The notes: generated from the letters alone by a model not told the origin. A stretch of DNA of 64,000 nt from an uncultured Bacilli bacterium (GCA_947627195.1 CANQVC010000001.1:99671-163670); one strand, 5' to 3'. Numbered from the stretch's first letter, positions 8,154-62,781 are shown. Translations and numbers: made by a program.

Positions 8154-8402
8154 TAATTATAAAATAATTATTTGATGTGATTATAATAATATTATTTTTT
8201 AAATATTATTTATTATATGATTTGATGAAAAAATAGACCAAACATTGAGCATTTCTTGTTGAAAAATGGGAAGTGCTCATTGTTGCGGTTTATTGATCTT
8301 GCTTTTTAATCTTTTTAACATAAATTTAAGTAAACTTTAATCATTAAGTATTATAATTTATTTAGATTTGTGCTAAAAAATAGTATATAAAGGAGTATAA
8401 AT

Positions 8403-14400: not shown

Positions 14401-16031
14401 CAATTCCATCTTCAATAGAAGATATGAAAGGATTTGTATTTGCTAATTGTTCATCTTTAGAAACAGTTATATTAGAAGATGGTATTACCTATATTCCTGA
14501 ATATACATTCTATATGGATCAAAGTTTAATTACTGTAACAGGCGGAAATATTCTAGAAGTAGCCGATTCAGGATTTTATGGATGTTTATATTTAGAAAGT
14601 ATCGATTTAACACATGCTCAAACTATTGGTATGGATGCATTTTATTCATGTCAAAGCCTTGTTGAAGTAGATCTACAAGAAGCAACATATCTAGCAGATG
14701 GTGCATTCTTTGCAGCAACTGATGTTACAACATTAAACATTCCTAAAGTTGAATATATTGGTCAACAAGCTTTAAGTAATATTGGTGTAAGATCAATAGT
14801 TATTCCAAATACAATTAAATATATTGCACCAACTGCTTTCTATGCTAATGAGAACCAAACATCATTTATCGTAATGATTAATGGTATGGCACTTGAAACA
14901 GGAATTATTAATGATTATGCATCTTTATATAATAGTGGTTTATATATTACAACTGAAAATGGTGGAAAAACATTAATTGCTTATCCTACAGGACGCACTG
15001 ATATTGAATATGTTGTTGAAGAAGGAACTGAAAGAATAGAAATTTATGCTGGTGCAGATAATTTATATTTACAAAAAATAATTCTTCCTGAAACATTACA
15101 ATCAATTGGTAATATGGCATTTTATGGATGTACGCATTTAGAAACAGTTGAATTTAGATCAACAGTTGCCCCAATATTAGAAGGTGTACCATATGGATCA
15201 CAAAGCGATTATACATATCCAGAAGATTCAAAAGTATATGAATTATTAACTAAATATTATGCTTTTAATGGTACATATCCATATTATTATGGACAATTCA
15301 AAGCAGTTGTTGGTACTATTTCTCCATTAAAAATAATTGTTCCATCTAATTTTGATACAAGTGGATTCGAATCAATTGAAGGTAAATATAGTCCTTCATC
15401 AAAAGATATGACAGGATTTAATCAATTGATGTATGCAATGTATTTTGATTTAGAAAATATGGAAGTCTCAACTCGTATAAGTAAAAATGCTACAACAATG
15501 GCATATTTACGTAATGTATCTTTAATTCCAAATATTGAAGATATTCAAATAACTGATGAAAAAATTATTCGTGATGCGGTAACAGCTTATAATGCTTTAA
15601 ATCAAAATTTATTAGATTTTGGTTATACACAACAACAATTAAACGAAATGCATAATAAAATGCTTCGTGCCCAAGATAAAGTAAAAGAATTAAAACTTGC
15701 TCGTGTTAATGAAAAATATGCTGACTTAGTTAAAGAAATCGAAGAATTAGGAACTGTATTTAGTTTAGATAAATATGATTTATACAAAAAAATAGTTGTT
15801 GAACTAGATTATATATCTAAATCTGATCAAGCAGATATGGATTTATCAAATGTTGATGCCTTTAAATTATCTTATCAAGCATATTTTAAGAACTTAAATC
15901 AAGAAGTTTCTAATATGACATTGATTAGTAATCAAACAACATCACAAATTATAGGTGCTGTTGCAACATCAGTAGCTCTAGCAACATCTGTTATTGGTGT
16001 AGCATTTATAATTAAAAAACATTGGTTTTAA
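8403..16031 (+). CDS. Cell-envelope subtilisin-like serine protease (S8 with PA-domain insert) fused to Big_2 domains, a long BspA-type leucine-rich-repeat region and a C-terminal TM anchor. Predicted lipoprotein, 2542 aa.
   Basis: Lipobox LTGCSV. Catalytic triad motifs AILDSGFD, HGTHVAGIIGG and GTSMACPNMCG. PA-domain-like VALVKRGDINFEEKARIAYEEGAVACIVYNN lies between the His and Ser motifs. Big_2-like SSNPSVVQV...GRATITAT and SSSNPSVATVDNTGLVTAIKEGTSYITL. More than 20 repeats of the form IG..AF..C..L..V.IP. C-terminal hydrophobic segment IIGAVATSVALATSVIGVAFII. The RBS AAAGGAG is 8 nt upstream. Confidence 0.8.
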   Translation: MKKKFKRIMVLLCAILVFLTGCSVSDEQKDVEQNNQHITHLNLQQADLISQVTDNVKYLNPDLLYDIEGLDDDDEISIIVTMSNEGLADDYFENSLGFESVSDYTKSSVAKIDANQMLKEQKELANKLVNKGLIFSSKHSYVTLFNGFSATTTFANYKKLVKMGIAEKVSISEVYAAPQATSSTGYTAVENLVDVYETGIFNSSSVEYDGENTAVAILDSGFDIHHTVFQNMPQHPMITKEDVSKVLNTTKASTFTSGMKVEDVYVNAKIPYAYDYADKDPDVAPFDSEHGTHVAGIIGGKDDVITGVAINTQLVLMKVFGDLVTGAKEEDILAALEDSVTLGVDAINMSLGFSCGFSYLEDNDYLNSVYNKIEEAGISLIVAASNDYSSAYGGEESNTSKVTNPDSATVGSPSTYYAALSVASISGEKSRYIKANDGYVFYFNEANNASALPYDFVGMLNLPENKDVTYDYVTVPGYGKKINYSNIDVNGKVALVKRGDINFEEKARIAYEEGAVACIVYNNIGGDILMSAGNDLKIPLCSISKDDGEYLASKNTGTLTFNSTFLAGPFMSDFSSWGPNPDLTLKPEITAHGGNIKSSIPGGGYDKLSGTSMACPNMCGIIVLIRQYVKEKFPQLSTPEMARLTNNLLMSSATIALDQAGNPYSPRKQGAGLASLFNAVNTNAYLTVDGSDRAKIELGDDPNKLGVYTLKFTINNVSDKPLSYDLTNYTMTESVSTSDPRYVAEKSYMLNPATSFNVTGDGTKNGNTITINANGKVNVEYTLTLNESEKRYIRTSFPNGMYVEGFAKLISKNEDKIDLSIPFLAFFGDWTSAPMFDKTFYEVEAEAHDASINDEDKLKADYYATTPLGTYYYNYIIPLGSYVYVMDETMYDPIPATEEHAALGYNDDSINGITTIYAGLLRNAKKMTTTIKNTLTGEVVYEHVNYNQFKAHYSGGQIPSYDLIYLTIQELGLANNTNYTLTMQAELPYGDGGLANNQRNTFSFTFYVDFEAPTLYDTEYRVEYDRTLEKNRYYLDVYVYDNHYAMSVRPFTLVDGALVSLCENPTPIYSEKGAVSKATLEITDYMDLLHYGSGGEGEDGLTNGLGIMVDDYAMNSNYYYVSFPGTDSENFYFEKDGETVTEITTHVGEEVDLGLMMSSDDEELNEVLNNLNDRTKPYQDEIKSKFMSTLNWKSSNPSVVQVFNGKIEGIAPGRATITATNVTNSGYIFTKSLSVIVEEATPSSISKVSYKNNSSRIMPMAFNNNVSLKDIKFTYYDTIAAFIDGPEYSEIGDTGDRNFFTDSSTISFYPSEKVKLAYEITPWNLDPSRYQLTWSSSNPSVATVDNTGLVTAIKEGTSYITLRIAVKNPTTGNFETSPLLARATVVVKNEFIVEGRILTAYKGNGGDVVIPDDLGIMYIGSYAFSLYTTDMSIKVDENDWDANKTAGGNTSIKSVTIPYDVTEVQKYAFYNCPELEKVTFLKSPDDKSCKIIREYAFMNDTKLSNINLEKVQVIGANAFKNCVGLKTVDFTNIYALGEEAFSGCTGLQSVDISTLRNAWPNVFKDCTNLTSFTSSEFTNFSEGMFTNTGLQDITIYSDRIPASTFANCPNLENVTIQNNIIYIGDNAFEGDRKLNTVTFNGTCDYIYQYAFKDCTGMTSLILPNSPISFEMYALLGCSQLSQLKFQENTYILENMGVLLEACRSLTTFEVDAKNQHYKANNELLLDATGKIIILAAPGFNYNNYTIPSDYDTIGEGAFSGISTLRTLKFAGNPVISPYAFAECTSLTTVTLPTNITSIGEGAFEACVALRNISNLKNVKEIGGLAFASTALVTIEIGDDTNVLDGAFSQITTLRAATFGKNVTLGEGAFFADTALATVNINADGMLHINGYCFANCVRLATIDLSLATGEIGDYAFYNCQSLRVAHLTNITKIGEFAFSDCVSLSTVTIPMVESIGDAAFGAGSADSTSGTAIASITLPNTLKTLGEAVFFGCPNLTSVTIPSSIEDMKGFVFANCSSLETVILEDGITYIPEYTFYMDQSLITVTGGNILEVADSGFYGCLYLESIDLTHAQTIGMDAFYSCQSLVEVDLQEATYLADGAFFAATDVTTLNIPKVEYIGQQALSNIGVRSIVIPNTIKYIAPTAFYANENQTSFIVMINGMALETGIINDYASLYNSGLYITTENGGKTLIAYPTGRTDIEYVVEEGTERIEIYAGADNLYLQKIILPETLQSIGNMAFYGCTHLETVEFRSTVAPILEGVPYGSQSDYTYPEDSKVYELLTKYYAFNGTYPYYYGQFKAVVGTISPLKIIVPSNFDTSGFESIEGKYSPSSKDMTGFNQLMYAMYFDLENMEVSTRISKNATTMAYLRNVSLIPNIEDIQITDEKIIRDAVTAYNALNQNLLDFGYTQQQLNEMHNKMLRAQDKVKELKLARVNEKYADLVKEIEELGTVFSLDKYDLYKKIVVELDYISKSDQADMDLSNVDAFKLSYQAYFKNLNQEVSNMTLISNQTTSQIIGAVATSVALATSVIGVAFIIKKHWF

Positions 16032-39081: not shown

Positions 39082-39109
39082 TTGAGTATCTAGCAAAATA
39101 TGATAAAAT
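39082..39109 (+). promoter_or_regulatory. Putative sigma-A promoter for the riboswitch and pur operon
   Basis: -35 TTGAGT (39082-87), a 16-nt spacer, extended -10 TGaTAAAAT (39101-09). The predicted TSS is a few nt before the riboswitch P1. Confidence 0.45.
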
Positions 39110-39118
39110 AAATATGTA

Positions 39119-39186
39119 TCTTGTATAATGGCTTTAATTGGTAAGCGAGTCTCTACCCTACGACCGTAAATTGTAGGACTACAAGA
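39119..39186 (+). ncRNA. Purine riboswitch aptamer, guanine-type (C in J3-1)
   Basis: P1 tcttgt/acaaga. J1-2 ATAAT. P2 ggctt..aagc. J2-3 GAGTCTCTAC (compare xpt AGTTTCTAC). P3 cctac-GACCGTAAATT-gtagg (compare CACCGTAAAT). J3-1 ACT with C at the specificity position. It lies 5' of purE as in other Firmicutes. Confidence 0.75.
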
Positions 39187-39255
39187 AACATAAATTAGGT
39201 TCATTTTACTGTGCCTATTTTTGTGTTTTTCTTGCTTACTTAGAAAGGAAGCAAA

Positions 39256-50060: not shown

Positions 50061-51331
50061 TGAAAGTTTTAGTTGTTGGTAAAGGGGGTCGAGAACATGC
50101 TATTGTTAAAGCGATATCTTTATCAAAGCAAGTTGATAAATTATATTGTGCCCCTGGAAATCCTGGAATGAGTAACATCGCTACACTTGTTCCCATTCAA
50201 GAAACTGATATAACAAATTTAGTTGAATTTGCGAAAAGAGAAAAAATAGATTTAACTGTTGTCGGTCCTGAAGCTTCATTAGCATTAGGAATAGTTGACG
50301 CCTTTAAAAAAGAAAATTTAAATATTTTTGGTCCAACAAAAGAAGCAACACAAATTGAATCAAGCAAAGAATTTGCAAAAAAGATTATGAAAAAATATCA
50401 TATTCCCACTGCTAATTATGAAAGTTTTAATTCATTTGATAATGCTGATCAATATTTAAAAAAGGCAAAATATCCAATAGTTATTAAGTTTGATGGACTT
50501 GCTGCTGGTAAAGGTGTTATTATAGCTAATAATTATGAAGAAGCAAACAAAGCAATAGAAGATATATTTATTAATAAAGTATTTGGAGATGGAAATATTA
50601 TTATTGAAGAATTTTTAGAAGGACCTGAATTTTCTTTAATGGCTTTTGTAGGTAATAATAAAGTATATCCAATGGTTTTAGCCCAAGATCATAAAAGAGC
50701 TTATGACCATGATTTAGGACCAAATACAGGTGGTATGGGGGCTTATTCACCAGTTGATTTCATAACTGATGAAGATATAAATTATGCCATTGAAAAAATT
50801 ATGAAACCAACTATAAATGGTTTATGGCAAGAAGGAATCCATTATGAGGGTGTCTTATATGGTGGATTAATGAAAACTAAAGATGGCATAAAAGTTATTG
50901 AATTTAATGCTAGATTTGGTGATCCTGAAACTGAAGTAGTATTGCCTAGATTAACTTCAGATATTGTTTCTATTTTTATGGGTATTTCCTCAAATAATCA
51001 TAATTTTGATGTTAAATGGGCAAATGAAAAAACAGTAGGTGTTGTATTAGCATCTAAAGGATATCCAGGCAAATATCAATCAGGATTTTTAATTGAAGGA
51101 TTAGATAAAGTTGATGCTTTAGTTTATCATATGGGAACAAAATTAATTAATAATAATTATTATACAAATGGTGGAAGAGTATTATTTGTTGTGGCAAAAG
51201 GAAAAACAATTGATAAAGCTTTAGAAAAAGTTTATCAAGAAATAAATAAAATCCATTGTGATAACTTATATTATCGAACTGATATTGCTTATCAAGCTTT
51301 ATCTACTAAACGAGGAGAAAAAAATGATTGA
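50060..51331 (+). CDS. purD: GAR synthetase
   Basis: [18 protein letters not shown]-grasp. Start overlaps the purH stop (TAATG). Confidence 0.9.
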   Translation: MKVLVVGKGGREHAIVKAISLSKQVDKLYCAPGNPGMSNIATLVPIQETDITNLVEFAKREKIDLTVVGPEASLALGIVDAFKKENLNIFGPTKEATQIESSKEFAKKIMKKYHIPTANYESFNSFDNADQYLKKAKYPIVIKFDGLAAGKGVIIANNYEEANKAIEDIFINKVFGDGNIIIEEFLEGPEFSLMAFVGNNKVYPMVLAQDHKRAYDHDLGPNTGGMGAYSPVDFITDEDINYAIEKIMKPTINGLWQEGIHYEGVLYGGLMKTKDGIKVIEFNARFGDPETEVVLPRLTSDIVSIFMGISSNNHNFDVKWANEKTVGVVLASKGYPGKYQSGFLIEGLDKVDALVYHMGTKLINNNYYTNGGRVLFVVAKGKTIDKALEKVYQEINKIHCDNLYYRTDIAYQALSTKRGEKND

Positions 51332-52619
51332 AAGATATTCAAGACCAGAAATGAGAAAAATTTGGACTGATGAAAATAAATTTCAAACATATTTAAATGT
51401 TGAAATATTAGCATTAGAAGCTTTTAATAAATTAGGAGTTGTTCCAGAAAAAGATTTAGATCTTATTAAATCTAAAGCTAAATTTTCTGTTAATAGAATT
51501 AGTGAAATCGAACAAGAAACTAAACATGATGTCGTAGCATTCACAAGATGTGTCAGTGAATCATTAGGTGATGAAGCTAAATGGGTGCATTATGGTTTGA
51601 CATCAACAGATGTTGTTGATACAGCTAATGGGGCAATGATTAAAGAAGCTAATAACATTCTTGATAAAGATATTTTGTCTTTAATGAATATTTTAAAAGA
51701 AAAAGCATTACAATTTAAAGATACTCCTTGTATTGGTCGCACTCATGGTGTTCATGCTGATATTACAAGTTTTGGCTTAAAATGGGCATTATGGTATGAA
51801 GATATGAAACGTAATTATGAACGCTTTAATATGGCAAGACATGATATTGAAGCTGGAAAAATTAGTGGAGCTGTTGGTAATTTCGCAAATGCTCCAATGT
51901 TTGTTCAAGATTATGTATGTGAAAAGTTAAATATTACATCAAGTAAAATATCAACACAAACTTTACAAAGAGATCGTCATGCTTTTTATATGTCTGTATT
52001 AGCATTAATAGCTGCAACTTTAGAGAAAATTGCTACTGAATTTCGTCATTTACAAAGAACAGAAGTACGTGAAGTAGAAGAAGGATTTTCTAAAGGACAA
52101 AAAGGTTCAAGTGCAATGCCTCACAAAAGAAATCCTATTTCTAGTGAAAATATATGTGGATGTGCTAGAGTAATGAGAGGATATATGCTAACATTTTATG
52201 AAAATGTTGCATTATGGCATGAAAGAGATATTTCCCATTCATCAACTGAAAGAATCATATTGCCTGATGCTACAATGTTATTAGATTATATGATTAATAG
52301 AATGATTAATATTATAAAAAATCTTGGTGTTTTTGTTGATAACATGAAACAAAATATTTACAAAACTCATCATGTCATATTTGCCCAAAGAGTAATGACT
52401 AAATTAATTGATAAAGGCTTTACTAGGGAAAAAGCATATGATTACATTCAAAAATATGCAATGGAAAGTTGGACTAAACAGATTGATTTTAAAGATTTAT
52501 TATGGAATGATCAACTTGTTCAAGAAAAACTAACCAAAGATGAATATGAAAGTTGTTTCACATTAGAATATTATTTAAGAAATGTTGAAGCAATTTATCA
52601 AAGAATTGGAATATTATAA
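51324..52619 (+). CDS. purB: Adenylosuccinate lyase
   Basis: MIERYSRPEM canonical N-terminus. Fumarate-lyase signature GSSAMPHKRNP. The ATG at 51324 follows GAGGAGAAA; the track's start at 51258 has no RBS and overlaps purD by 74 nt. Confidence 0.9.
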   Translation: MIERYSRPEMRKIWTDENKFQTYLNVEILALEAFNKLGVVPEKDLDLIKSKAKFSVNRISEIEQETKHDVVAFTRCVSESLGDEAKWVHYGLTSTDVVDTANGAMIKEANNILDKDILSLMNILKEKALQFKDTPCIGRTHGVHADITSFGLKWALWYEDMKRNYERFNMARHDIEAGKISGAVGNFANAPMFVQDYVCEKLNITSSKISTQTLQRDRHAFYMSVLALIAATLEKIATEFRHLQRTEVREVEEGFSKGQKGSSAMPHKRNPISSENICGCARVMRGYMLTFYENVALWHERDISHSSTERIILPDATMLLDYMINRMINIIKNLGVFVDNMKQNIYKTHHVIFAQRVMTKLIDKGFTREKAYDYIQKYAMESWTKQIDFKDLLWNDQLVQEKLTKDEYESCFTLEYYLRNVEAIYQRIGIL

Positions 52620-52673: not shown

Positions 52674-52716
52674 AAACTATAGATAATCGTTTGATGATAC
52701 TTCTATAGTTTTTTTG
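52674..52716 (+). terminator. Rho-independent terminator ending the pur operon
   Basis: aaactatag (52674-82), a 20-nt loop, ctatagttt, then T7. Confidence 0.55.
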
Positions 52717-52811
52717 TATAAGAGAATAAAATATATTATTTTTTTAAAAAATATTTTATTTTTTTAAACATAAATCTTAAAAGTGTGTTATAATTAAGTA
52801 TAAAAATAATC

Positions 52812-52841
52812 AAATGAATTAAATTAGTAATTAATTCATTT
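52812..52841 (+). promoter_or_regulatory. Palindromic operator-like site between a putative promoter (extended -10 tgTTATAAT at about 52781-90) and the vWA gene RBS
   Basis: AAATGAATTAA-attagtaa-TTAATTCATTT: 11-bp perfect inverted-repeat arms with an 8-bp spacer. Confidence 0.4.
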
Positions 52842-52865
52842 AATAATAGAAAAAGGAGAAACACT

Positions 52866-53513
52866 ATGCCTAATAATAAAATGGTTTATTTTTTAATTGA
52901 TTGTAGCGGATCTATGGCTGGTACACGTGCTGATGCAGTAAACTATGCTATGGAAAAAGTAGTAAGTGAAGCAATACCTGCCATTAAAACTCAAAAAAAT
53001 GCTGATTTACGTCTTTACTTTATGGCAATTGGTTTTTCAGGTGATGGTATATTTACAATAATGGATCGTACAAGCTTAGATGATTTCACTAATTGGGATA
53101 CAATTGAAGATAGTGAATTTAATGGTGGAACTCCAACAGGTAAAGCTATCTTAGAAATAATTAAAGATATTCAAGGAGTAAGAGGAGATCCTCTTCCTGA
53201 TGTATGTGCTTCCGCGATTATTTTAATTTCTGATGGTGAACCTAATGGAATAGAACCAACATATGAAGAAGTATTAGAATATGCAAATCGTAATAGTGAT
53301 AAATTCAATTTAGCATTTGCAAAATCACTTCGTGTTGCTATTGGTATTAATGTTGATAATAATGGTCGTGAAAGTCTAAAGAAATTTGGTAGCGTTACAT
53401 CAACAATGAGAGAACAAGGAATTGAATCTTATTATGATTGTAATGAAGAATATGTTGATAAACTTGTTGAAGTACTTAAATCAGCAACAATTCATGCTTC
53501 AATTGGCGCATAA
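52866..53513 (+). CDS. von Willebrand factor A domain protein (TerY-like) with an intact MIDAS motif
   Basis: MVYFLIDCSGSMAG (D.S.S), GGTPTG (Thr), ILISDGEPN (Asp). The RBS AAAAAGGAG is 8 nt upstream. First gene of a four-gene + strand cassette. Confidence 0.75.
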   Translation: MPNNKMVYFLIDCSGSMAGTRADAVNYAMEKVVSEAIPAIKTQKNADLRLYFMAIGFSGDGIFTIMDRTSLDDFTNWDTIEDSEFNGGTPTGKAILEIIKDIQGVRGDPLPDVCASAIILISDGEPNGIEPTYEEVLEYANRNSDKFNLAFAKSLRVAIGINVDNNGRESLKKFGSVTSTMREQGIESYYDCNEEYVDKLVEVLKSATIHASIGA

Positions 53514-53533
53514 AATATAATAAACATAAATAG

Positions 53534-53556
53534 CCACCAGTTTTTCTGGTGGTTAA
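53534..53556 (+). terminator. Intercistronic hairpin (partial terminator or attenuator) between the vWA gene and the phosphatase gene
   Basis: ccaccag-ttttt-ctggtgg: a perfect 7-bp GC-rich stem followed by ttaatgatt (weak U-tract). Confidence 0.4.
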
Positions 53557-53580
53557 TGATTGTTTATAGGAAGGAAATAT

Positions 53581-55584
53581 ATGGACAAAAAAATTATATA
53601 TTTTTTAATAAAACGATTATCAATGGAAAATGTTTCATCATTTCCTTCATCAACTATAGAAAATTATATATATAATACTATAGAACAATATAAAAATGAA
53701 AATGATGATATAACATTTAAAGTTTTATTATATTCTAACCATTCATTATATTCAGTTTTTGATCAATTAATAACTCCATTTAATCAAATTGATGATTATG
53801 ATTTTGGTTATGATAATGTGAATTTAAATGATTTATTCCCATATGTTAGTGATGATTTAGTTAATTTTTCATTTATTAATCGCAAACAAAACATAAAATG
53901 TATTATTATAAATAATAATAATATTATAAACAATAATAATATTTTTAATGTATTAATTGATGATACATGTCCAACATATAACAATATCACAAATAATATT
54001 GCTTTTAAAATAAATAGTCCATCATTAAATAAATCTTTTAAATTATATAATAAAACATTTAATATAGATGATGCAAAAAATGAATTATTAAATTTTTTAA
54101 TAGAATTAAATAATACATCTAATAATATTGATAATAAAAATTCAAATGTTAATATTTTGTCAATGAATTATCAAGAAAAAATGAATTATATTATTCAATT
54201 TTTAAAAGATAATCAAACTAATATGGCAACAGAAGATGATCATTGGCTTGATGTATTAATTGGTGGTAGATCATCTATTCCTTATCAACATATCAATAAT
54301 ATTATTAACAATATTCCTAAATTAAATAATATTGGAAGAAGAAATATCTATTTTGCCACAATTTTATTTTATATATTTACAAATGGTAAATTTGTTGATG
54401 AAGTATGGAAAAATTCATTAACATATTATTTAACACTAAAAGATAAAGCTAAGGAAGTAAATCAATATTTTAATAAAATTAATCAAGAAAATGATGAAGT
54501 ATCTGTCTTTTTCCAAGAACAATATTCATCTATAAAAAGAAAAGATATTGAAAAAGTTATATCCAAAATATATCAACCAGGTGAAAGAAAACTTTTTGAA
54601 ATGTTATGGGAAGTATTAATTACTAATTATCCATATTATGATATTGAACGCCATTGGTATAAATGGTTTATAACGATATTATTTGAAAATGTTCAACCAC
54701 GTTGTTATAAACAATCTTTCACAGAAAAATATGAAAGATATATAATATCAGTAAAAGGTAAAATGCAAAAAATAGGACATGAAACATGTCAAGATTATAC
54801 TGATATGGATGAAATAGATGATAAAATATGGTATGCTGTATGTTGTGATGGAGTTGGAAGTTGTACCCATTCCGCAGAAGGTTCATTACTTGCTTGTCAA
54901 GCTTTCGCCAAAGTCCTAAAATCCAAAATTCAAACCTATTATCATTTTAATTGTCATAAATCATTTGATAAATATACAAATATTGTTGCAAATATTTATC
55001 AATTCTTTACTAATGAATTTGGCAAGAAATTATTTAATCAATGGAAAAAACTTGTTGAAGAAAGTGCTAGTTATCAAAATGATCCTAATAAATCTTTAAA
55101 TAATTATGCTACAACTTTCCAATTTGTTTTCAATTATAAATCATTAATTGTTTGTGGAGCATTAGGTGATGGAAATTATTATATTCATAAAAAAGAAAAA
55201 TTTGGTGATAGATCTTTTGATGGGGGATTTGTTTTAAATGATGGTATATCAGGTGTATCACAAACTTCAGTATTTACTATCTTACATTTAGAAAAAAGTT
55301 CAACTGTTATGCATTTATCATTCTTTAATGCCAAAGAAGTTTCATCAATAATTATTTCCTCTGATGGAGTAATGTTAAATCAAAATTTTTTATCACTAAT
55401 GAATGTTCAAGGTAATGCTAATAATAAATCATTCATTTTTCAAGCAATGAAGCAATTAGAAAATTTATCAAAAGAAGAAAAGATTAATAAATTATCAAAT
55501 CTTGTTTTATCTTGTTCAGATTATAATGAAACTGGATATGGTACAGGTGATGATTGTTCATTAATATTCATTCATTTTAAATAA
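53581..55584 (+). CDS. Protein with an N-terminal region of about 390 aa of unknown function and a C-terminal PP2C-like (SpoIIE/PPM-type) Ser/Thr phosphatase domain
   Basis: PPM motifs YAVCCDGVGSCTHSAEGS (motif 1/2), ALGDGNYY, SSDGVMLNQ and C-terminal GTGDDCSLIFIHF (compare the DD.T..VV motif). The ATG at 53581 follows AGGAAGGAAA. The N-terminal part is poly-Asn/Ile-rich. Confidence 0.55.
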   Translation: MDKKIIYFLIKRLSMENVSSFPSSTIENYIYNTIEQYKNENDDITFKVLLYSNHSLYSVFDQLITPFNQIDDYDFGYDNVNLNDLFPYVSDDLVNFSFINRKQNIKCIIINNNNIINNNNIFNVLIDDTCPTYNNITNNIAFKINSPSLNKSFKLYNKTFNIDDAKNELLNFLIELNNTSNNIDNKNSNVNILSMNYQEKMNYIIQFLKDNQTNMATEDDHWLDVLIGGRSSIPYQHINNIINNIPKLNNIGRRNIYFATILFYIFTNGKFVDEVWKNSLTYYLTLKDKAKEVNQYFNKINQENDEVSVFFQEQYSSIKRKDIEKVISKIYQPGERKLFEMLWEVLITNYPYYDIERHWYKWFITILFENVQPRCYKQSFTEKYERYIISVKGKMQKIGHETCQDYTDMDEIDDKIWYAVCCDGVGSCTHSAEGSLLACQAFAKVLKSKIQTYYHFNCHKSFDKYTNIVANIYQFFTNEFGKKLFNQWKKLVEESASYQNDPNKSLNNYATTFQFVFNYKSLIVCGALGDGNYYIHKKEKFGDRSFDGGFVLNDGISGVSQTSVFTILHLEKSSTVMHLSFFNAKEVSSIIISSDGVMLNQNFLSLMNVQGNANNKSFIFQAMKQLENLSKEEKINKLSNLVLSCSDYNETGYGTGDDCSLIFIHFK

Positions 55585-55609
55585 ATAAAATTATTTAAGG
55601 AGTATGACA

Positions 55610-56857
55610 ATGGAAATAGGTTCAAAAATAACATGTGTTGATCAAGAAGAATTTACAATTATAAAATCAATGAATGAAGCTGGTGGACAAGGAACTTTAT
55701 GGTTAGTAGAAGATCATAATAAAAATCAATATGCTTTTAAGAAACTAAAAAAAGATAAAAAATTTATTCAGAAAAAAGGTAATATTGATAAAATCATTAA
55801 TGAAAATATACATCAGATTGTTGAAAACAAAGGTAAGAAAGATAATATTAAATTCATGTTACCTTTAAAACGTACAAAAATGTTACAAGATGATACTATA
55901 GGTTATATTATGCATCTAGCCAATGGTAAAAGTATAAATTCAATATTAACTATTCCTGATGTTATTACTAACATTCCTTTAGAAACAAAACTTAAAATTT
56001 TAAGACAAGTTGTTTTATCTGTTGATATTTTACATAGTATTGGTTATTGTTATGCTGATATAAGTTGGGGAAATTTCATGTATGATTTTTCTAAAGAAAC
56101 ATTATATGTCGTCGATTGTGACAATATTGCATCTCAATCAGATATTCGCAATAATAAAGCAAATTTTGTTAGTGGTACAGGATTTTTTGTTGCTCCAGAA
56201 GTTGCCTTTGATGGCAAAACTATTGATTTAAATACTGAACATTATTCTTTAGCTGTTTTTATCTTTCGTTTTTTATTAAATAATTTAATTAGTTCACCTT
56301 ATCATGGTTATATTTTACATCGTGAAATGGAAGGTGTAATGCCTCAAAGTACTTTTGATATTGCTGATATGATTAATGAATTTGGTTTGCCAAGTGATTG
56401 GTGTGTTTTTGTTTTTGATGAAAATAATCCAGTAAATTCAATTCGTCGTTTAATTGATGATTATTATCTAAAACAAGCAAATAAAGGGCAAAGTATTAAA
56501 GATAGAATAAAAGAATTAGAACAATGTATTTCTTTATGGAATATAATACCAATTGAAATTAAAAATTTATTGATTGAAACATTTTCTAATTTACGTAATC
56601 CTCGTCGTCCATCAACAATTCAATGGAATATAGCTATTCAACAAGCTTTATCTAAAGATAATATTAATATCAATATTAAACAAAATAATGATACAATATT
56701 ATCTAAAATAAATAATGAAGTTGTTGATATAAAAGATAATATTGAAATAAAGACCAAACCTGTTCGTAAACCTTTTGTTGGACAAGGAGAAATTTTCCCA
56801 ACAAATCCTCAACCTAAAAAGAAATATAAGAAATTTGAGGGCGGAAAAAACGATTAA
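55610..56857 (+). CDS. Protein-kinase-like (eukaryotic-type Ser/Thr kinase fold) protein with a C-terminal extension of about 130 aa
   Basis: Gly-rich loop AGGQGTLWLV. Lys motif YAFKKL. Catalytic-loop-like YADISWGNFMYD (D..N). DFG-like VVDCDNIA. GTGFFVAPEV (APE). The ATG at 55610 is 7 nt after AAGGAG. Confidence 0.55.
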   Translation: MEIGSKITCVDQEEFTIIKSMNEAGGQGTLWLVEDHNKNQYAFKKLKKDKKFIQKKGNIDKIINENIHQIVENKGKKDNIKFMLPLKRTKMLQDDTIGYIMHLANGKSINSILTIPDVITNIPLETKLKILRQVVLSVDILHSIGYCYADISWGNFMYDFSKETLYVVDCDNIASQSDIRNNKANFVSGTGFFVAPEVAFDGKTIDLNTEHYSLAVFIFRFLLNNLISSPYHGYILHREMEGVMPQSTFDIADMINEFGLPSDWCVFVFDENNPVNSIRRLIDDYYLKQANKGQSIKDRIKELEQCISLWNIIPIEIKNLLIETFSNLRNPRRPSTIQWNIAIQQALSKDNININIKQNNDTILSKINNEVVDIKDNIEIKTKPVRKPFVGQGEIFPTNPQPKKKYKKFEGGKND

Positions 56858-56883
56858 AATAAATAAAAAGGAGGAAAGAAATC

Positions 56884-59800
56884 ATGGAATTAAATGAATT
56901 TAAAGATTATGTTTTTAAAATAACTAAATTATTAAATGAAGTTAATCCTAATCAACCAGTTTCTATTTATGTTTCAGATTATTTAAGAGGCATAAGTACT
57001 AATTATGGAATTGGTAAAGTAATTTATGATTTAGCTGATATATGTGTAAATACTCTTAAAAACATGCCTAATGATGAATGTGATTTTGCTCATTTAAGTG
57101 AAATGGCTTATATAATTCGTAGTAATGATTTTAATTTTGGTAATATTTATAAAACACAAGCATATTTCTTTACTCTTTGTTTATTTGCTGCTAGTCAAAA
57201 TAAGATTAATATTAATGATATTGATTGTGAAGATTTTGATGTTGATGAATTTCAAAAATTTTCTGTTACTGATTTAGATGTTGAAAATGAATTAGATCCA
57301 ATTGAAAAGAAATTAAATTATTACAGGTTACGTTTGTTAGATTTTTCAAGGAGTAATCCTTTAGTTAACTTTAAGAAAAATAGAACTAGTGCTTTGCAAT
57401 TCTTTTCCCCGCAAATTGGCACATTAATGCATGAATTATCTAAAAAGAAGACATTAAAAATTACTAATTGGAGTGATAATCAATTTCAAATAATTTATCG
57501 TTGTAAAATATGTGGTCGATATCATTTTGAATCGTTTAATCCTTTTGATCCATTAAGTAAACCTTCAATAGAATGCCCAGTATGTGATTTAAATAATACT
57601 CATCATCGTAAGAGTATGATTCCATTAGAAGAAGATATGCAATTTGCCATTGATGAATATACATGTAAAAAATGTGGTAAAGTTATAAATATTGATGAAA
57701 TTAAAAATGGTTTATATGAATGTCCTGATTGTCATTCTCCTATTGAATTAAAATCTTTTCCGATTGTATCAACTGATAACATAAATAATATAATTAAGAA
57801 AAATGATAAAAAACCATTTATGATTTGCAGTTTATCTGATAAAAACTTAGCTAAAATAATTGGTACAATTCAAGGTAGAGCCCAAACCATGGAAAAAAAC
57901 TTTGGTTTACATGTGTTATATCTCGCTTGTGGCTTTTTAGAATGGAAAGATATTAATGGTACAAATTATAATTCACCAATATTATTATGTCCTATTCACT
58001 TTAAGAATGAAAACAATTCATTTAGTATTGAAATTGATAGTTCATCAGAACATGTTTTTGAATTTAATAAAACATTATTGCATATGTTGAAAGGATATTC
58101 AAAAGAATATGCAATTTATATTGAACCACCAAAATATAATGAAGAAGATGGAATGTATGGTACATATTTTTCTACTTTGGAATCATATTTAAAAAATGAT
58201 AAAAATGTTATACAATTTACTAAAGATTGGCAAGTTCATAGAACATTAGGAATAAGTTTATTTCATTATCAAAAATTACAATTAGAAAGTGATATGACAA
58301 AATATAAAGATATTTATTTAAATCATCCAATGATTAGAAGAATTTGTGGTGATGAAAATCAAGAAATATTAAGTAGTCAGTCATTTATTCAAAATAGCTT
58401 TCCTTATATTTTATTTGATGCTGATTCGAGTCAAGAAAATGTCATCAATAAAGCTTTAGAAGGTAAATCATATATTTTAGAAGGACCACCTGGTTCAGGA
58501 AAAAGTCAAACAATAAGTAATATAATTGCTATGTCAATTGGTAGTGGTAAATCAGTATTGTTTGTTACCGAAAAAGCAACAGCAAGAACTATTATTTATG
58601 AAAATCTTAAAGAAAAGAAATTAGATTCAACCCATAGTCTTACCGATTATATTCTTGATTTTAATCAATTTCATTTAAGAGGTGGTTCAATTCCTCGTTC
58701 AACATTCATTGAAGAATTAAATAGAGTTGTGAAATTAGATGATATTGCTCAAAGTTCTAATTTCTTTGATGTGGAAAGTAAAGAAATATTAGAACAATAT
58801 ATTAAAAATTATCAAAAAGAATTTAGTACAATGGATGAATCAAGAAATTCATTTATGGGTATTTTAAATAAAATAGTTCAATATGCGAAATATCCAATTC
58901 TTTCATCTTTTAAAAATGTAAATTGTGATTTATATACATTATTTAAAAATATAAAAAAATATTATCAAGATGTTGAAAACAAGATTGTATTATTTGATTA
59001 TCGAAAAGATCCTTTATATTTATGTTTAGGCGATATTGATGGAAAATTTGTTTATAATATTAACCAATATATCAATATATATGATCAAGGTAGTAAATTA
59101 ATTGAAGATATCAATAATCATTTACATTTAAAATTAAATGAAAACAATCGTTTTGAATATCAATATATTATTAATTTATTAAATCAATGTTTCTTACTTA
59201 GTCCTTTAAAAGAGGAAATGTTAAATCAAATAATTATATTAGGAGATTTAGATAAATATAAAACATATTTAGTAAATCGTAAAAATGAAATGAATGAATA
59301 TTTACCATATTATGATTATCAAAAAGAAGTAAATGAATCTTTAATAAATCAAGATATCATTACTGAATTAAATCAAAAAATGGACAAATATTCATCGAAA
59401 ATTAAAAGAATATCAAGAAATTATTATTTATTAAAAAAACAAATTAAATTAATTTTCAAAAATAATATTGTTATAAAAAAATATGAAGATGGTCAAAATT
59501 ATGTTCATAGATTAAATCAATATTTTCATTATTTCCAATTAAAATGTCAATATGAAGAAAAACATCCTGTTGATCATACATATTTAGGATATATTCCCCA
59601 AAATATTACATCTTGGCAAGATGAAATTGATAAAATTGATTTAATTATGAAAATACATCAAGTAATGAATGAATATATTCCTTCATCTATTACATCTACA
59701 ATTGAATTTTTAGAAAATTATCTTTCAAATGTATATCAAAAAAATATGGCAATTTCGAAAAAAATCTTTGAAGAAGCAAATAATATTTTTGATAATGAAG

Positions 59801-61674
59801 CTATTTATTTAAATAAATTACAAAATTATTTTGTATTTGATTTAAATAATAATATGAAAGAAATAGTTGATAAATTAAATATTATTTTAGAAAATCAAAA
59901 TCGATTAGTAATTTGGCAAAATATGCATCAAGAATTAGAATGGTTTAAAGATTATAATGTTTTACCATTATTAAACGAAATTGTTGATAAAAATATTAAT
60001 AATAATATTAATAATAATAATAATTATTATTATTATTGTTATGATATTGTTGAAAAAGCAATTTATCATTCATATTATCAAAAATTATTAGATGAATTTA
60101 TTGTTAAACATTCTTTATCAACAATTAAAAATTTTGATGTTAATGAACATATTGATAATTTAAGGAAATATGCAAAAATAGATGAAAATGATTTGGAACA
60201 TGCTAAATCATATTTATATGATCGATTATATTCCTTAAGGATAGAAGCTAGTAATAAGTTGCAACAAAAGAGTAAATTGTTATCTAATCGAACTGGCTAT
60301 TCCATAAAGAAATTAATTGATGAAAATTGGCAATATATTAAATATATTAAACCATGTTTTATGATGTCACCATTAAATGTTAGTCAATACATTGATATTA
60401 ATAATCAATTTGATTTAGTCATATTTGATGAAGCATCACAAATTTTTACCGAAGATGCTTTAGCTGCCATTGTTAGAGGAAAACAAATAATTATTGTTGG
60501 TGATAGTAAACAATTACCACCATGTGATTTTTTCCGTGCTCAAGATGTTTATCAAAGTGATCAAGAAGATTTATTTGAAGATGATGAAAATCAAGAAAAT
60601 TCCATTTTAAACGATGCTACTAAAGCTTTAGGAGATATTTCTATTCAATTAAATTGGCATTATCGTAGTTATGATGAATCATTAATTGCTTTTTCAAATG
60701 AACACTTTAATTATAATTTAATTACTTTTCCTGCTGCTATTAAAGAAGTCAATGATGGAATTGAATATATATCTGTTCCTTATGATCAAAATCTTTGTTA
60801 TAGTGCTGGAAAAACTGGTACTCATACAAACAAAAAAGAAGCAAGAGTAGTTGTTGAAACATTATGGCGTGAAATTATCCATCCTGAAAGAAATAAATAT
60901 TCATTGGGTGTTGTTGCCTTTAGTAATGCTCAAGCTGAAGCAATAAAAGAAGAATGGTTTGAATTTAGAAAAGATTCTTTAAAAGATGCTGTCATTAAAG
61001 TTTGGGAAGAAAAACATGAAGAAATAATCTTTTGTAACTTAGATACAATGCAAGGTGATGAAAGAGATACAATGCTTATTAGTATTTGTTATAGCCCTGA
61101 TAAAAATGACAAATTTTTATTAACTTATCTAGGTAGAATTCGTTTAGCATCAGGAAAGAAAAGATTAAATGTTGCCATAACTAGAGCAAGACATAGAATG
61201 ATTGTCATATCAATGTTAGAAAATCAAAGATTGAGATCAGCTATTGAAGAAAGTTTAGCATTAGAAGAAAATAAAGAAGGAGCAAAATCTTTATATGATT
61301 TCTTAGAATATGCAAGTTCATTTAAAAATGAAAATAATATTCCTACATCATCTCCATCAAATGATATTGTTAAATCAATATGTGAATGTTTAGATGAAGA
61401 ACATATTTCTTATGATACTGAAATAGGTAGATCAAAATGTAAAATCAATATTGGTATTAAATCATTACCATTTAATGGTAATTATTCATTAGGAATTATT
61501 GTTGATGATCCTACAAGGACTGATTTTGACAGTCCACGTGAATATGCTAGATTAACTGAAAAAATATTAAGAAATAAATATAATTGGGATATTTATCGTA
61601 TTTATCCAATATCTTGGGTAAATAATTATGAGCAAGAAAAAGCTAAATTATTAAAAAAAATTCATTCAATTTAA
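56884..61674 (+). CDS. Giant Upf1/DNA2-like SF1 helicase (1596 aa): N-terminal DUF4011-like domain with two inserted zinc ribbons, helicase core, and C-terminal restriction-endonuclease-like (DUF3320/MTES-type) domain
   Basis: Walker A ILEGPPGSGKSQT (about aa 533). Walker B VIFDEASQI (about aa 1181). Motif III IIIVGDSKQLPP. Motif VI LNVAITRARHRMIVIS. DUF4011-like GLHVLYLACGFLEWKD. Zn ribbons CKICG..(20)..CPVCD and CKKCG..(17)..CPDCH. The RBS AAAAGGAGGAAA is 8 nt upstream. A terminator follows. Confidence 0.7.
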   Translation: MELNEFKDYVFKITKLLNEVNPNQPVSIYVSDYLRGISTNYGIGKVIYDLADICVNTLKNMPNDECDFAHLSEMAYIIRSNDFNFGNIYKTQAYFFTLCLFAASQNKININDIDCEDFDVDEFQKFSVTDLDVENELDPIEKKLNYYRLRLLDFSRSNPLVNFKKNRTSALQFFSPQIGTLMHELSKKKTLKITNWSDNQFQIIYRCKICGRYHFESFNPFDPLSKPSIECPVCDLNNTHHRKSMIPLEEDMQFAIDEYTCKKCGKVINIDEIKNGLYECPDCHSPIELKSFPIVSTDNINNIIKKNDKKPFMICSLSDKNLAKIIGTIQGRAQTMEKNFGLHVLYLACGFLEWKDINGTNYNSPILLCPIHFKNENNSFSIEIDSSSEHVFEFNKTLLHMLKGYSKEYAIYIEPPKYNEEDGMYGTYFSTLESYLKNDKNVIQFTKDWQVHRTLGISLFHYQKLQLESDMTKYKDIYLNHPMIRRICGDENQEILSSQSFIQNSFPYILFDADSSQENVINKALEGKSYILEGPPGSGKSQTISNIIAMSIGSGKSVLFVTEKATARTIIYENLKEKKLDSTHSLTDYILDFNQFHLRGGSIPRSTFIEELNRVVKLDDIAQSSNFFDVESKEILEQYIKNYQKEFSTMDESRNSFMGILNKIVQYAKYPILSSFKNVNCDLYTLFKNIKKYYQDVENKIVLFDYRKDPLYLCLGDIDGKFVYNINQYINIYDQGSKLIEDINNHLHLKLNENNRFEYQYIINLLNQCFLLSPLKEEMLNQIIILGDLDKYKTYLVNRKNEMNEYLPYYDYQKEVNESLINQDIITELNQKMDKYSSKIKRISRNYYLLKKQIKLIFKNNIVIKKYEDGQNYVHRLNQYFHYFQLKCQYEEKHPVDHTYLGYIPQNITSWQDEIDKIDLIMKIHQVMNEYIPSSITSTIEFLENYLSNVYQKNMAISKKIFEEANNIFDNEAIYLNKLQNYFVFDLNNNMKEIVDKLNIILENQNRLVIWQNMHQELEWFKDYNVLPLLNEIVDKNINNNINNNNNYYYYCYDIVEKAIYHSYYQKLLDEFIVKHSLSTIKNFDVNEHIDNLRKYAKIDENDLEHAKSYLYDRLYSLRIEASNKLQQKSKLLSNRTGYSIKKLIDENWQYIKYIKPCFMMSPLNVSQYIDINNQFDLVIFDEASQIFTEDALAAIVRGKQIIIVGDSKQLPPCDFFRAQDVYQSDQEDLFEDDENQENSILNDATKALGDISIQLNWHYRSYDESLIAFSNEHFNYNLITFPAAIKEVNDGIEYISVPYDQNLCYSAGKTGTHTNKKEARVVVETLWREIIHPERNKYSLGVVAFSNAQAEAIKEEWFEFRKDSLKDAVIKVWEEKHEEIIFCNLDTMQGDERDTMLISICYSPDKNDKFLLTYLGRIRLASGKKRLNVAITRARHRMIVISMLENQRLRSAIEESLALEENKEGAKSLYDFLEYASSFKNENNIPTSSPSNDIVKSICECLDEEHISYDTEIGRSKCKINIGIKSLPFNGNYSLGIIVDDPTRTDFDSPREYARLTEKILRNKYNWDIYRIYPISWVNNYEQEKAKLLKKIHSI

Positions 61675-61718
61675 AATTATATAATAAAAAAAGTAAGATA
61701 ATAAATCATTTATAAAAT

Positions 61719-61748
61719 GCAAATGATTTCATCTTGCTTTTTTTTTGA
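61719..61748 (+). terminator. Rho-independent terminator after the helicase gene
   Basis: gcaaatga..tcatcttgc stem (one bulge) followed by T9. Confidence 0.5.
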
Positions 61749-61860
61749 AAAAAATGTATAATAAAGAAAAACTAAGGAAGGAATTTTAATAAAGAGAATT
61801 ATTAAATACCTATCATTATTTTGAACATATAAGTAATAAAAAAGAATAGATATCTTAATA

Positions 61861-61914: not shown

Positions 61915-62781
61915 ATGAAAAGTTTATTAAGTCTTGATTTATTGACAAATGATGAAATCATGGATATTCTAAAAGATGCCCAAGAATTCAAACGTGGAAG
62001 TTCTTTTCAATTAAAAGACAAAATAGTAGCTAATCTATTTTTTGAACCATCAACAAGGACTCATTATTCATTTAATGTTGCTGAAGAAAAACTTGGAATG
62101 AAAGTACTTAATTTTGATCCGGGAAGTTCAAGTCTAATTAAGGGTGAAAGTTTTTATGATACTGTAAAAACATTTGCATCTTTTGGTGTAGATTGTATTG
62201 TGATTCGTCATACGCAAAATCGTTATTATGATGAACTTAAAAACATTGATGTCCCAATTATTAATGCAGGTGATGGTACTAAAGATCATCCTAGTCAAAC
62301 TTTACTTGATTTAATGACTATTTATGAAGAATTTGGTAAATTTAGTGGTTTAAAAATTGCCATAATGGGAGATATTAAACATTCTCGTGTTGCTCATGGC
62401 GATATTAGTATTATGGAAAGATTAAACATGCAATGCTATACAAGTGGTCCAGATGAATATCAAGATGATAAATATTCCTTCATTTCTATGGAAGATGCTT
62501 TAAAAGAAATGGATGTTATTATGATGCTTCGTGTACAAAATGAACGTCATACTGAAAAAATGAAATTAACTAATGAAGAATATTTAAGCCAATATGGTTT
62601 AACATTAGATAAGGTAAATAAAATGAAGAAGAATGCAATTATTATGCATCCTGCTCCTGTAAATAGAGGTGTTGAATTAAGTGATGAAGTTGTGGAATGT
62701 TCTAAATCAAGAATATTCACTCAAATTAATAATGGAGTGTTTGTTCGTCAAAGTATTTTAAAAAGGACTTTTTCCAAATGA
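61915..62781 (+). CDS. pyrB: Aspartate carbamoyltransferase catalytic subunit
   Basis: STRTHYSF (carbamoyl-phosphate-binding S-T-R-T motif). HPSQ (compare HPTQ). Confidence 0.85.
   Translation: MKSLLSLDLLTNDEIMDILKDAQEFKRGSSFQLKDKIVANLFFEPSTRTHYSFNVAEEKLGMKVLNFDPGSSSLIKGESFYDTVKTFASFGVDCIVIRHTQNRYYDELKNIDVPIINAGDGTKDHPSQTLLDLMTIYEEFGKFSGLKIAIMGDIKHSRVAHGDISIMERLNMQCYTSGPDEYQDDKYSFISMEDALKEMDVIMMLRVQNERHTEKMKLTNEEYLSQYGLTLDKVNKMKKNAIIMHPAPVNRGVELSDEVVECSKSRIFTQINNGVFVRQSILKRTFSK

Follow-up and report, generated by a model that had tools for sequence, protein, structure and literature searches.

The 64,000-nucleotide stretch of DNA analyzed here, referred to as the window, derives from an uncultured Bacilli bacterium (GCA_947627195.1, CANQVC010000001.1:99671-163670) and has a G+C content of 27%. 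Judged by the neighbors of its PurB, the source is approximately a low-GC Bacilli organism similar to Erysipelotrichaceae or Acholeplasma. The window contains four tightly spaced open reading frames (ORFs) on the + strand at positions 52866 to 61674, between purB (51324 to 52619) and pyrB (61915 to 62781), which encode a stand-alone von Willebrand factor A (vWA) protein (g1), a protein with a C-terminal PP2C phosphatase domain (g2), a serine/threonine kinase of the eukaryotic protein kinase (ePK) type (g3), and a large DUF4011 helicase of superfamily 1B (SF1B), similar to Upf1 and DNA2 (g4). With moderate confidence, this cassette is read as a single-operon, four-gene conflict system, most likely directed against phages or plasmids, with the first three genes as a regulatory triad. 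The observations behind this reading are the genes themselves, whose catalytic motifs are intact, their conserved synteny, the helicase's homology to known defense helicases, and the rapid divergence of the cassette compared with its flanks. Coordinates are window positions on the + strand unless a different locus or strand is given, and residue numbers refer to the individual proteins.

The coupling of the triad and the helicase is real, because the same gene order recurs at 30 to 65% identity and a motif scan for the kinase clade recovers the whole cassette at each locus found. Full-length relatives of g4 fall into ∼50 clusters within this identity range, mostly from metagenome-assembled genomes of Clostridia or Bacilli, and about 12 genomic contexts of these relatives were sampled. 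At least six other contexts with unrelated surroundings show the order vWA-PP2C-kinase-helicase, with helicase identities of 30 to 65%; loci with the full order are L001 (GCA_947626065.1), L002 to L004, L094 together with L005 (GCA_947627395.1), L102, L103, and L104. The last three stem from a scan of Joint Genome Institute (JGI) metagenomes for the kinase-clade motif GTGFFxAPEVAF, in which 3 of 3 loci hold the complete set of genes. The triad had been described as joined to the helicase in one operon in the initial annotation, made from the sequence of the window, and the conserved synteny in unrelated contexts bears this out. The two families are also alike in their rarity, with 58 cluster representatives of g2 among 1.84 billion proteins in an exhaustive HMMER search and ∼50 clusters of the helicase clade, which is defined below by eight cysteines (8-Cys clade).

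Variants of this arrangement occur as well. A kinase-vWA pair lies upstream of the helicase at L039, and L006 contains only the vWA protein and the helicase. At L009, the helicase faces a convergent kinase-vWA-PP2C operon. The operon at this locus (6994 to 12842, − strand) converges on the helicase gene and encodes a zinc-ribbon-tailed kinase, a vWA protein, a PP2C protein, and a transglutaminase; its PP2C protein is built differently, the phosphatase domain being N-terminal and followed by a coiled-coil tail. Helicases of the 8-Cys clade lacking a triad are found in two lineages. Among 80 distant DUF4011 helicases listed from species genomes, which served as a control, a triad is located nearby only at L039. 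Viral contigs contain seven distant helicase matches, none of them from the 8-Cys clade. The cassette is rare but recurrent; the helicase is able to stand alone, and a dedicated accessory triad usually travels with it.

The four genes form one transcription unit. The gene of the vWA protein (52866 to 53513; 215 amino acids [aa], assigned through Pfam and alignment) is followed by g2 (53581 to 55584; 667 aa, with an ATG start behind the ribosome-binding site GGAAGG and an alternative TTG start at 53560 giving 674 aa), g3 (55604 to 56857; 417 aa, assigned through Pfam and a PDB profile search), and g4 (56884 to 61674; 1596 aa, assigned through Pfam, PADLOC, and NCBIfam). The gaps between them are 67, 19, and 26 bp, and ribosome-binding sites precede g3 (AAGGAG) and g4 (AGGAGG). 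The left boundary of the unit is the purB terminator, a hairpin followed by U7 (52674 to 52718; hairpin, 52674 to 52711) with a folding energy of the RNA of −11.9 kcal/mol (z, −2.0). A promoter-like site with an extended −10 element (TAAACA-18 nt-TG-TATAAT; 52765 to 52794), identified by a consensus scan and thus a consensus match only, lies 70 nt upstream of g1 and agrees at 10 of 12 consensus positions plus the TG. The operon is closed by an intrinsic terminator with a stem of 14 + 9 bp and U9 (61686 to 61745; −18 kcal/mol; z, −4.9). The ORFs and the hairpins after purB and after the helicase gene agree with the earlier description of four co-directional genes between two terminators. An additional GC-rich hairpin of 10 bp is located between g1 and g2 (53531 to 53555; −20.6 kcal/mol; z, −4.85). 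It has no proper U tract, and at the sister locus L094, whose g1 and g2 directly adjoin each other, it is missing. This hairpin is possibly a partial terminator or an RNA-stabilizing element, and it might raise the ratio of the vWA protein to its partners or stabilize the transcript.

The combination of a vWA protein, a PP2C phosphatase, and a kinase was reportedly defined as the TerY-P triad by Anantharaman, Iyer, and Aravind in 2012. The vWA protein g1 matches Pfam VWA with an E value of 2.6e-6, and an alignment of nine homologues reveals a complete metal ion-dependent adhesion site (MIDAS) consisting of D12-x-S14-x-S16, T90, and D123; the DxSxS, T, and D residues are kept in 8 of the 9 homologues. 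At the level of a generic vWA match, g1 therewith has the features of the stand-alone, TerY-like vWA component of such a triad, including the MIDAS. At L001 (GCA_947626065.1; 2644 to 6702 and 15389 to 21271), the cassette has additional neighbors on both sides. Ahead of it lie two further vWA paralogues in tandem, of which one has a degraded MIDAS, and a kinase paralogue devoid of the catalytic lysine; behind it lie a TIR-domain protein and an ADP-ribosylglycohydrolase.

The kinase domain of g3 covers approximately aa 20 to 345 and matches Pfam Pkinase at 6e-13. The catalytic residues are kept, comprising the glycine-rich loop (G-loop), K45, D152, N157, D171, and the APE motif, and a PDB profile search retrieves protein kinase C (PKC) theta at 3e-23. 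The catalytic Lys, the catalytic Asp, and the DFG-equivalent Asp required of an ePK-type kinase in a TerY-P triad are all present. PADLOC matches to mad6 (4e-10) and PD-T4-6 (4e-9) are weak and reflect the generic kinase domain. The tail of g3 (aa 345 to 417) is of low complexity and free of cysteines, with neither the OB fold at the kinase C terminus of the systems of Gao et al. (2020) nor the zinc ribbon of the CoCoNuT-linked kinases, both as given in PMC11090510. The kinase relatives at L009 and L039 carry CxxC...CxxC tails.

The PP2C domain of g2 comprises aa 373 to 667 (∼295 aa), of which the Pfam PP2C_2 match (1e-16) spans only aa 406 to 635. The metal-binding residues D405, D423, D530, D595, D657, and D658 are invariant across 44 relatives of g2. 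An AlphaFold2 (AF2) model shows a predicted local distance difference test score (pLDDT) of >90 over aa 190 to 667, and a Foldseek search with this model retrieves PP2C structures with a probability of 1.00. The phosphatase with catalytic Asp residues that belongs to a TerY-P triad is hence represented by g2. In front of the PP2C domain, aa 190 to 370 form a conserved all-helical domain that has no Pfam match. The N-terminal region (aa 1 to 190; 53581 to 54150) is Asn rich, shows low AF2 confidence, and is confined to the window and its sister species. The first 55 residues (KKIIYFLIKRLS...FKVLLYS) align with β1-α1-β2 of the vWA domain of g1, although not significantly (hhalign E value, 0.058). 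An origin of the N terminus as a decayed vWA domain was considered on this account and is unsupported, with a probability of <1% at that E value.

The helicase g4 matches Pfam DUF4011 at 2e-25 as well as AAA_11, AAA_12, AAA_19, and AAA_30. Its N-terminal helical bundle (aa 1 to 149; 56884 to 57330) has no significant structural neighbor, and no effector fold was found in the N-terminal region. A double zinc ribbon is located within the DUF4011 region (aa 207 to 283; 57502 to 57732), recognized by alignment and by weak Pfam zinc-ribbon matches, and built from C207, C210, C231, and C234 and from C261, C264, C280, and C283 as two CxxC...CxxC units. These eight cysteines are invariant in 50 of 50 clade members and are missing from relatives of the Hhe/PDC-S37 type; judging from the alignments, the invariant 8-Cys double zinc ribbon inside DUF4011 is the defining feature of the g4 helicase clade. 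The N-terminal part of helicase domain 1A with the Walker A motif GPPGSGKS (aa 510 to 600; 58411 to 58683) is recognized by Pfam and by a match to IGHMBP2. It is followed by an insertion of ∼530 aa (aa 601 to 1130; 58684 to 60273), which has no Pfam match and shows the lowest G+C content of the locus (18 to 20%). Motifs II to VI (DEASQ, GDSKQLPP, QGDERD, and VAITRAR; aa 1157 to 1445; 60352 to 61218) lie within AAA_11/AAA_12 and are seen as invariant columns. The Walker A and B motifs and motifs III to VI are intact, as is typical for SF1B helicases like Upf1 and DNA2. The nearest solved relatives in a PDB profile search are IGHMBP2 (1.3e-13), Sen1, DNA2, and Upf1, and the NCBIfam model TIGR00376 of the IGHMBP2 family matches at 3.9e-24. 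All three enzymes of the cassette, the helicase, the kinase, and the PP2C phosphatase, keep their catalytic residues.

Pfam searches, suggested as a check in the initial annotation, uphold its domain assignments for all four proteins: a vWA protein with an intact MIDAS, seen in the Pfam match and the homologue alignment; a eukaryotic-type kinase, seen in the Pkinase match, the catalytic residues, and the similarity to PKC theta; and a 1596-aa helicase of the Upf1/DNA2 family, seen in its motifs and the PDB and NCBIfam matches. For g2, the assignment as a PP2C-like phosphatase stands with regard to fold and catalytic Asp residues, and the protein is much larger than that label implies, with a low-complexity N-terminal region and a helical domain.

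The C-terminal end of g4 (aa 1497 to 1593; 61372 to 61662) contains a domain with the PD-(D/E)xK fold, similar to Vsr and MTES_1575 in Pfam searches and alignments (Pfam MTES_1575, 1.7e-9; 38.0 bits versus a cutoff of 38.2). Canonical Vsr/MTES_1575 members among the matches listed carry R-I-D-(F/L) and (E/L)-x-D-G-x-x-(Y)H. The active site of g4 is degenerate, with KINIGI replacing RIDFVI and GIIVDD replacing IECDG. The first catalytic Asp is an Asn in the window and a Ser, His, or Gln in the clade, in which only a minority of members retain Asp. The position of the Glu is always occupied by a hydrophobic residue or Thr in the clade and is likewise not Glu in relatives of the Hhe/PDC-S37 type. 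The second Asp, D1541, is the sole catalytic Asp invariant in the clade, so that the pair of conserved Asp residues of an active Vsr/MTES_1575 nuclease is incomplete in g4. The nuclease activity is doubtful because the canonical first catalytic Asp is lost, and the C-terminal domain is probably inactive as a nuclease. The previous description of g4 as a helicase-nuclease effector with a restriction endonuclease-like C terminus therefore holds for the fold and not for the catalytic center. The domain is well conserved overall and is therefore under selection, and it is more likely a nucleic acid-binding or oligomerization module than an active endonuclease. The additional Asp in GIIVDD would allow for an alternative reading, a rewired active site.

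The triad g1 to g3 resembles TerY-P in its three components, which are catalytically intact, share an operon, and act like a mobile module; the likeness of the order vWA-PP2C-kinase to this triad, pointed out before, is confirmed by the gene order and the three intact domains. TerY-P has been validated as an antiphage system on its own by Gao et al. in 2020, as far as cited in PMC11090510. The triad of the window differs from those described in that g3 has neither an OB fold, as in the systems of Gao et al., nor a zinc ribbon, as in the CoCoNuT triads, with zinc ribbons present in g4 instead. It further differs by the extra conserved helical domain and the lineage-specific N-terminal region of g2 and by its connection in one operon with a 1596-aa helicase. 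A module of kinase, PP2C, and vWA proteins is also attached to GTPase-centered conflict systems (PMC7159879).

The closest named relatives of the helicase are single-gene defense proteins of the DUF4011 helicase-nuclease type, namely, the PADLOC candidate PDC-S37 and Hhe, whose PADLOC models match g4 at 1.7e-192 and 1e-90, respectively, and ProA. Hhe (HheA) is a single-gene DUF4011 defense system (PMC11232893, PMC12278908). Shared with these families are DUF4011, the SF1B helicase with its long post-Walker A insertion, and the subsequent Vsr/MTES_1575-like domain. The differences are the added N-terminal helical domain and 8-Cys double zinc ribbon of g4, the loss of the first catalytic Asp in its nuclease domain, and the triad that usually accompanies its clade. 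The PDC-S37 match covers positions 5 to 1339 of 1550 with 640 bits, compared to 1197 bits over the full length for the true member P0053, a protein of 1931 aa with DUF3320. The full architecture of Hhe and PDC-S37 is not found in g4, which has no DUF3320 (PF11784) and ends with the Vsr-like domain. By sequence, the g4 clade is best placed next to Hhe, PDC-S37, and ProA as a sister clade and belongs to none of them.

A second group for comparison is the CoCoNuT systems. TerY-P triads accompany the Upf1-like helicase CnuH in CoCoNuT types II and III-A, where they are seen as an accessory module, while the CnuH of type III-B forms a fusion with a Vsr-like nuclease and occurs without TerY-P (PMC11090510). 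CnuH contains a large helical (coiled-coil) insertion after Walker A (PMC11090510), to which the insertion of g4 (aa 601 to 1130) is comparable in position. The cassette thus shares with types II and III-A a TerY-P-like triad encoded with an Upf1-like SF1 helicase with a big post-Walker A insertion and with type III-B the direct fusion of a Vsr-like PD-(D/E)xK domain to the helicase. In contrast to type III-B, the Vsr-like fusion and the triad coexist here. According to Pfam, the cassette has no McrB-like GTPase, McrC homologue, HEPN effector, or SmpB-like or RelE-like N-terminal domain, and a DUF4011 N-terminal module stands where the N-terminal domains of CnuH are located. The set of the McrB-like GTPase CnuB and the McrC-like CnuC with CnuH or the HEPN protein CnuE that characterizes CoCoNuT types II and III is absent, with no such domains in the cassette or its flanks. 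The kinase systems Stk2, PD-T4-6, and Mad6 share the ePK-type domain with g3 through weak generic matches but lack partners of the vWA, PP2C, or DUF4011 helicase type. No paper on this four-gene combination was found in the literature searched, in agreement with the initial annotation, which had called it uncharacterized. A new regulatory logic is not borne out, as TerY-P is already validated and already known with Upf1-like helicases (PMC11090510). The cassette joins two known kinds of modules in an arrangement not found described and is most likely a variant of phage defense modules already known, not a new kind of system.

The genes of the cassette diverge at different rates. A comparison with the only close relative found, the sister species GCA_947627395.1 (contigs L094 and L005, overlapping at 99.95%), shows identities of 87% for PurB and 82% for PyrB, compared to 83% for g1, 46% for g2, 50 to 67% for g3, and 61 to 65% for g4. 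g2 to g4 hence diverge far faster than their housekeeping neighbors, which may be compared to the behavior of arms-race genes. In relatives one step further away (PurB, 72%), no synteny is seen at the pur-pyr junction. Upstream, the cassette is flanked by purN-purH-purD-purB, and downstream it is flanked by pyrB. The pur operon that ends with purB is preceded by a purine riboswitch aptamer (39101 to 39201, + strand; Rfam RF00167; 76.6 bits). Besides the pur operon, the rest of the window encodes surface proteins, an Opp transporter, and sulfatase-family (lipoteichoic acid [LTA]-synthase-like) proteins. Predicted surface proteins of very large size follow one another from 414 to 20513 (+ strand); they include a 2542-aa protein (8403 to 16031) with subtilase S8, PA, Fn3, and BspA-type leucine-rich repeat (LRR) domains, and proteins of 999 aa and 1510 aa that are almost free of Pfam matches.

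From these data, a defense role is inferred for the cassette. The matches of g3 to the defense kinases mad6 and PD-T4-6 and the TIR-domain protein near the cassette at L001 also speak in its favor. In the proposed mechanism, g4 would be the part that engages the (invading) nucleic acid, and by analogy with Hhe, PDC-S37, ProA, and the solo helicases of its clade, it could probably act alone. The proteins g1 to g3 would serve as a TerY-P-like accessory module, in which the active kinase and its antagonist, the active phosphatase, would determine how far a target is phosphorylated, this target being most plausibly g4 itself or the vWA protein. The MIDAS-containing vWA protein may be an adaptor that holds the complex together or may read a phosphorylated or acidic ligand. 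An infection cue would then tip the balance between kinase and phosphatase, and the helicase would be licensed or released. Simple DNA cutting by the Vsr-like domain is probably not the output, because the canonical catalytic Asp of this domain is lost. Likelier outputs would be a block of the invader's replication or transcription through ATP-driven translocation or unwinding, or a growth arrest driven by the kinase.

Several observations weigh against such a triad-regulated conflict system. Solo helicases of the clade are located directly after recA-recX (L007/L008; L007, 7884 to 14773) and directly after an arginine biosynthesis operon (L105, 6207 to 12791), and the broad DUF4011 family in the 80 species genomes almost never occurs with a triad. 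No PADLOC model named TerY-P matches g1 to g3 or their homologues (E values up to 0.1 or 0.01), although the library copy may lack such models; the functional resemblance to TerY-P is strong, and strict membership in the TerY-P family of Gao et al. is unproven, because no model of that name matched. Apart from a generic weak PP2C match, g1 and g2 are unmatched in PADLOC and NCBIfam. For g4, the NCBIfam models of ProA (NF058533; 624 bits, 4.8e-187) and Hhe (423 bits, aligning only aa 790 to 1595) remain far below their cutoffs of 1500 and 2000, respectively. The cassette does not lie in a defense island of the window; no other defense genes are found there, pur and pyr genes surround it together with genes of transporters and surface proteins, and around homologues the defense island context is limited to the TIR-domain protein near the L001 cassette. 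The cassette has long been resident between purB and pyrB, since the sister species holds it at the identical purB|pyrB site. The G+C content at third codon positions (GC3) is 0.09 to 0.105 in the cassette and equal to that of the flanks (0.10 to 0.14); the lower total G+C content of the cassette results from its amino acid composition. A search for flanking direct or inverted repeats yielded only AT-rich chance matches, and no integrase or tRNA marks a mobile element. There is no sign of a recent insertion, and the proposal that the block is an inserted island does not agree with the shared site, the GC3, and the lack of repeats and an integrase.

The solo helicases also provide an argument for regarding the locus as two independent defense systems lying side by side, a TerY-P-like triad and an Hhe-like helicase without functional cross-talk. 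TerY-P works alone (Gao et al., 2020, in the citation given by PMC11090510), Hhe is a single-gene system (PMC11232893, PMC12278908), the clade of g4 itself has members on their own (L007/L008 and L105), and clustering of defense genes is common. This explanation is nevertheless unlikely in view of the fixed gene order, the gaps of 19 to 26 bp, and the single promoter and terminator, kept over 30 to 65% identity in unrelated contexts. The presence of the helicase at 3 of 3 kinase-clade loci, the equal rarity of the g2 subfamily (58) and the helicase clade (∼50), and the triad being essentially missing beside other DUF4011 helicases likewise argue for a dedicated partnership.

A division of labor in which the kinase is the effector of an abortive infection system is similarly improbable. 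The helicase would here act as the sensor of invader nucleic acid via its zinc ribbons and nuclease-dead Vsr-like domain and would activate g3; g3 would phosphorylate host or phage proteins and arrest growth like Stk2 or PD-T4-6, and g2 would silence g3 in uninfected cells. The matches of the kinase to PD-T4-6 and mad6 and, in relatives, to Stk2 models, the degenerate nuclease active site, the lack of an effector fold in the N-terminal region of g4, and the catalytically intact PP2C and kinase domains are consistent with this scheme. However, the solo helicases of the clade would be left without an output, L006 retains just the vWA protein and the helicase, and Hhe and ProA are named as complete antiphage proteins. 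Least probable is a housekeeping or stress module in which Ser/Thr phosphorylation regulates a helicase for host repair, replication restart, or RNA surveillance, since its position between core biosynthetic operons at the same site in the sister species, its flank-like GC3, the solo paralogues adjoining recA-recX, and the housekeeping roles of eukaryotic Upf1/DNA2/IGHMBP2-type helicases are set against a rare and very patchy distribution, neighboring genes that differ per lineage, the much faster divergence of g2 to g4 than of adjacent housekeeping genes, relatives with a PurB identity of 72% that do not have the arrangement, and closest named families that are antiphage.

Within the preferred reading of a four-gene conflict system regulated by its triad, a more specific proposal can be made with low confidence, namely, that the triad directly gates a nuclease-dead Upf1-like helicase through phosphorylation. 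The kinase would phosphorylate g4 or the bound vWA protein, the phosphatase would reverse this modification, and the MIDAS would read the site; the licensed helicase would stop the invader without cutting DNA, for example, by stripping proteins or by unwinding intermediates of replication or transcription, and RNA is a possible substrate. In eukaryotes, the SMG1 kinase and the PP2A phosphatase act on UPF1 in a phosphorylation cycle. As an analogy only, an Upf1-family SF1B helicase is encoded here together with a protein kinase and a phosphatase, although the regulators are nonhomologous (ePK versus phosphatidylinositol 3-kinase-related kinase [PIKK] and PP2C versus PP2A).

The cassette adds a distinct zinc-ribbon subfamily of DUF4011 helicases, for which current defense annotation tools would give a weak PDC-S37 or Hhe match at best. 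TerY-P triads belong to several large conflict systems centered on NTPases, and no demonstration of their sensing, substrates, or partner control was found in the literature searched. With its four genes on 8.8 kb and a single promoter and terminator, the cassette comes close to a minimal natural case of such a triad tied to only one partner protein. The natural variants, comprising the solo helicase, the vWA protein with the helicase, and the rearranged triad, represent built-in controls and therefore make the regulatory question experimentally approachable. If the phosphorylation gate is true, the cassette would parallel the UPF1 kinase/phosphatase cycle of eukaryotes in compact bacterial form and would offer the first mechanistic handle on how TerY-P controls partner NTPases in CoCoNuTs and in GTPase-centered systems.

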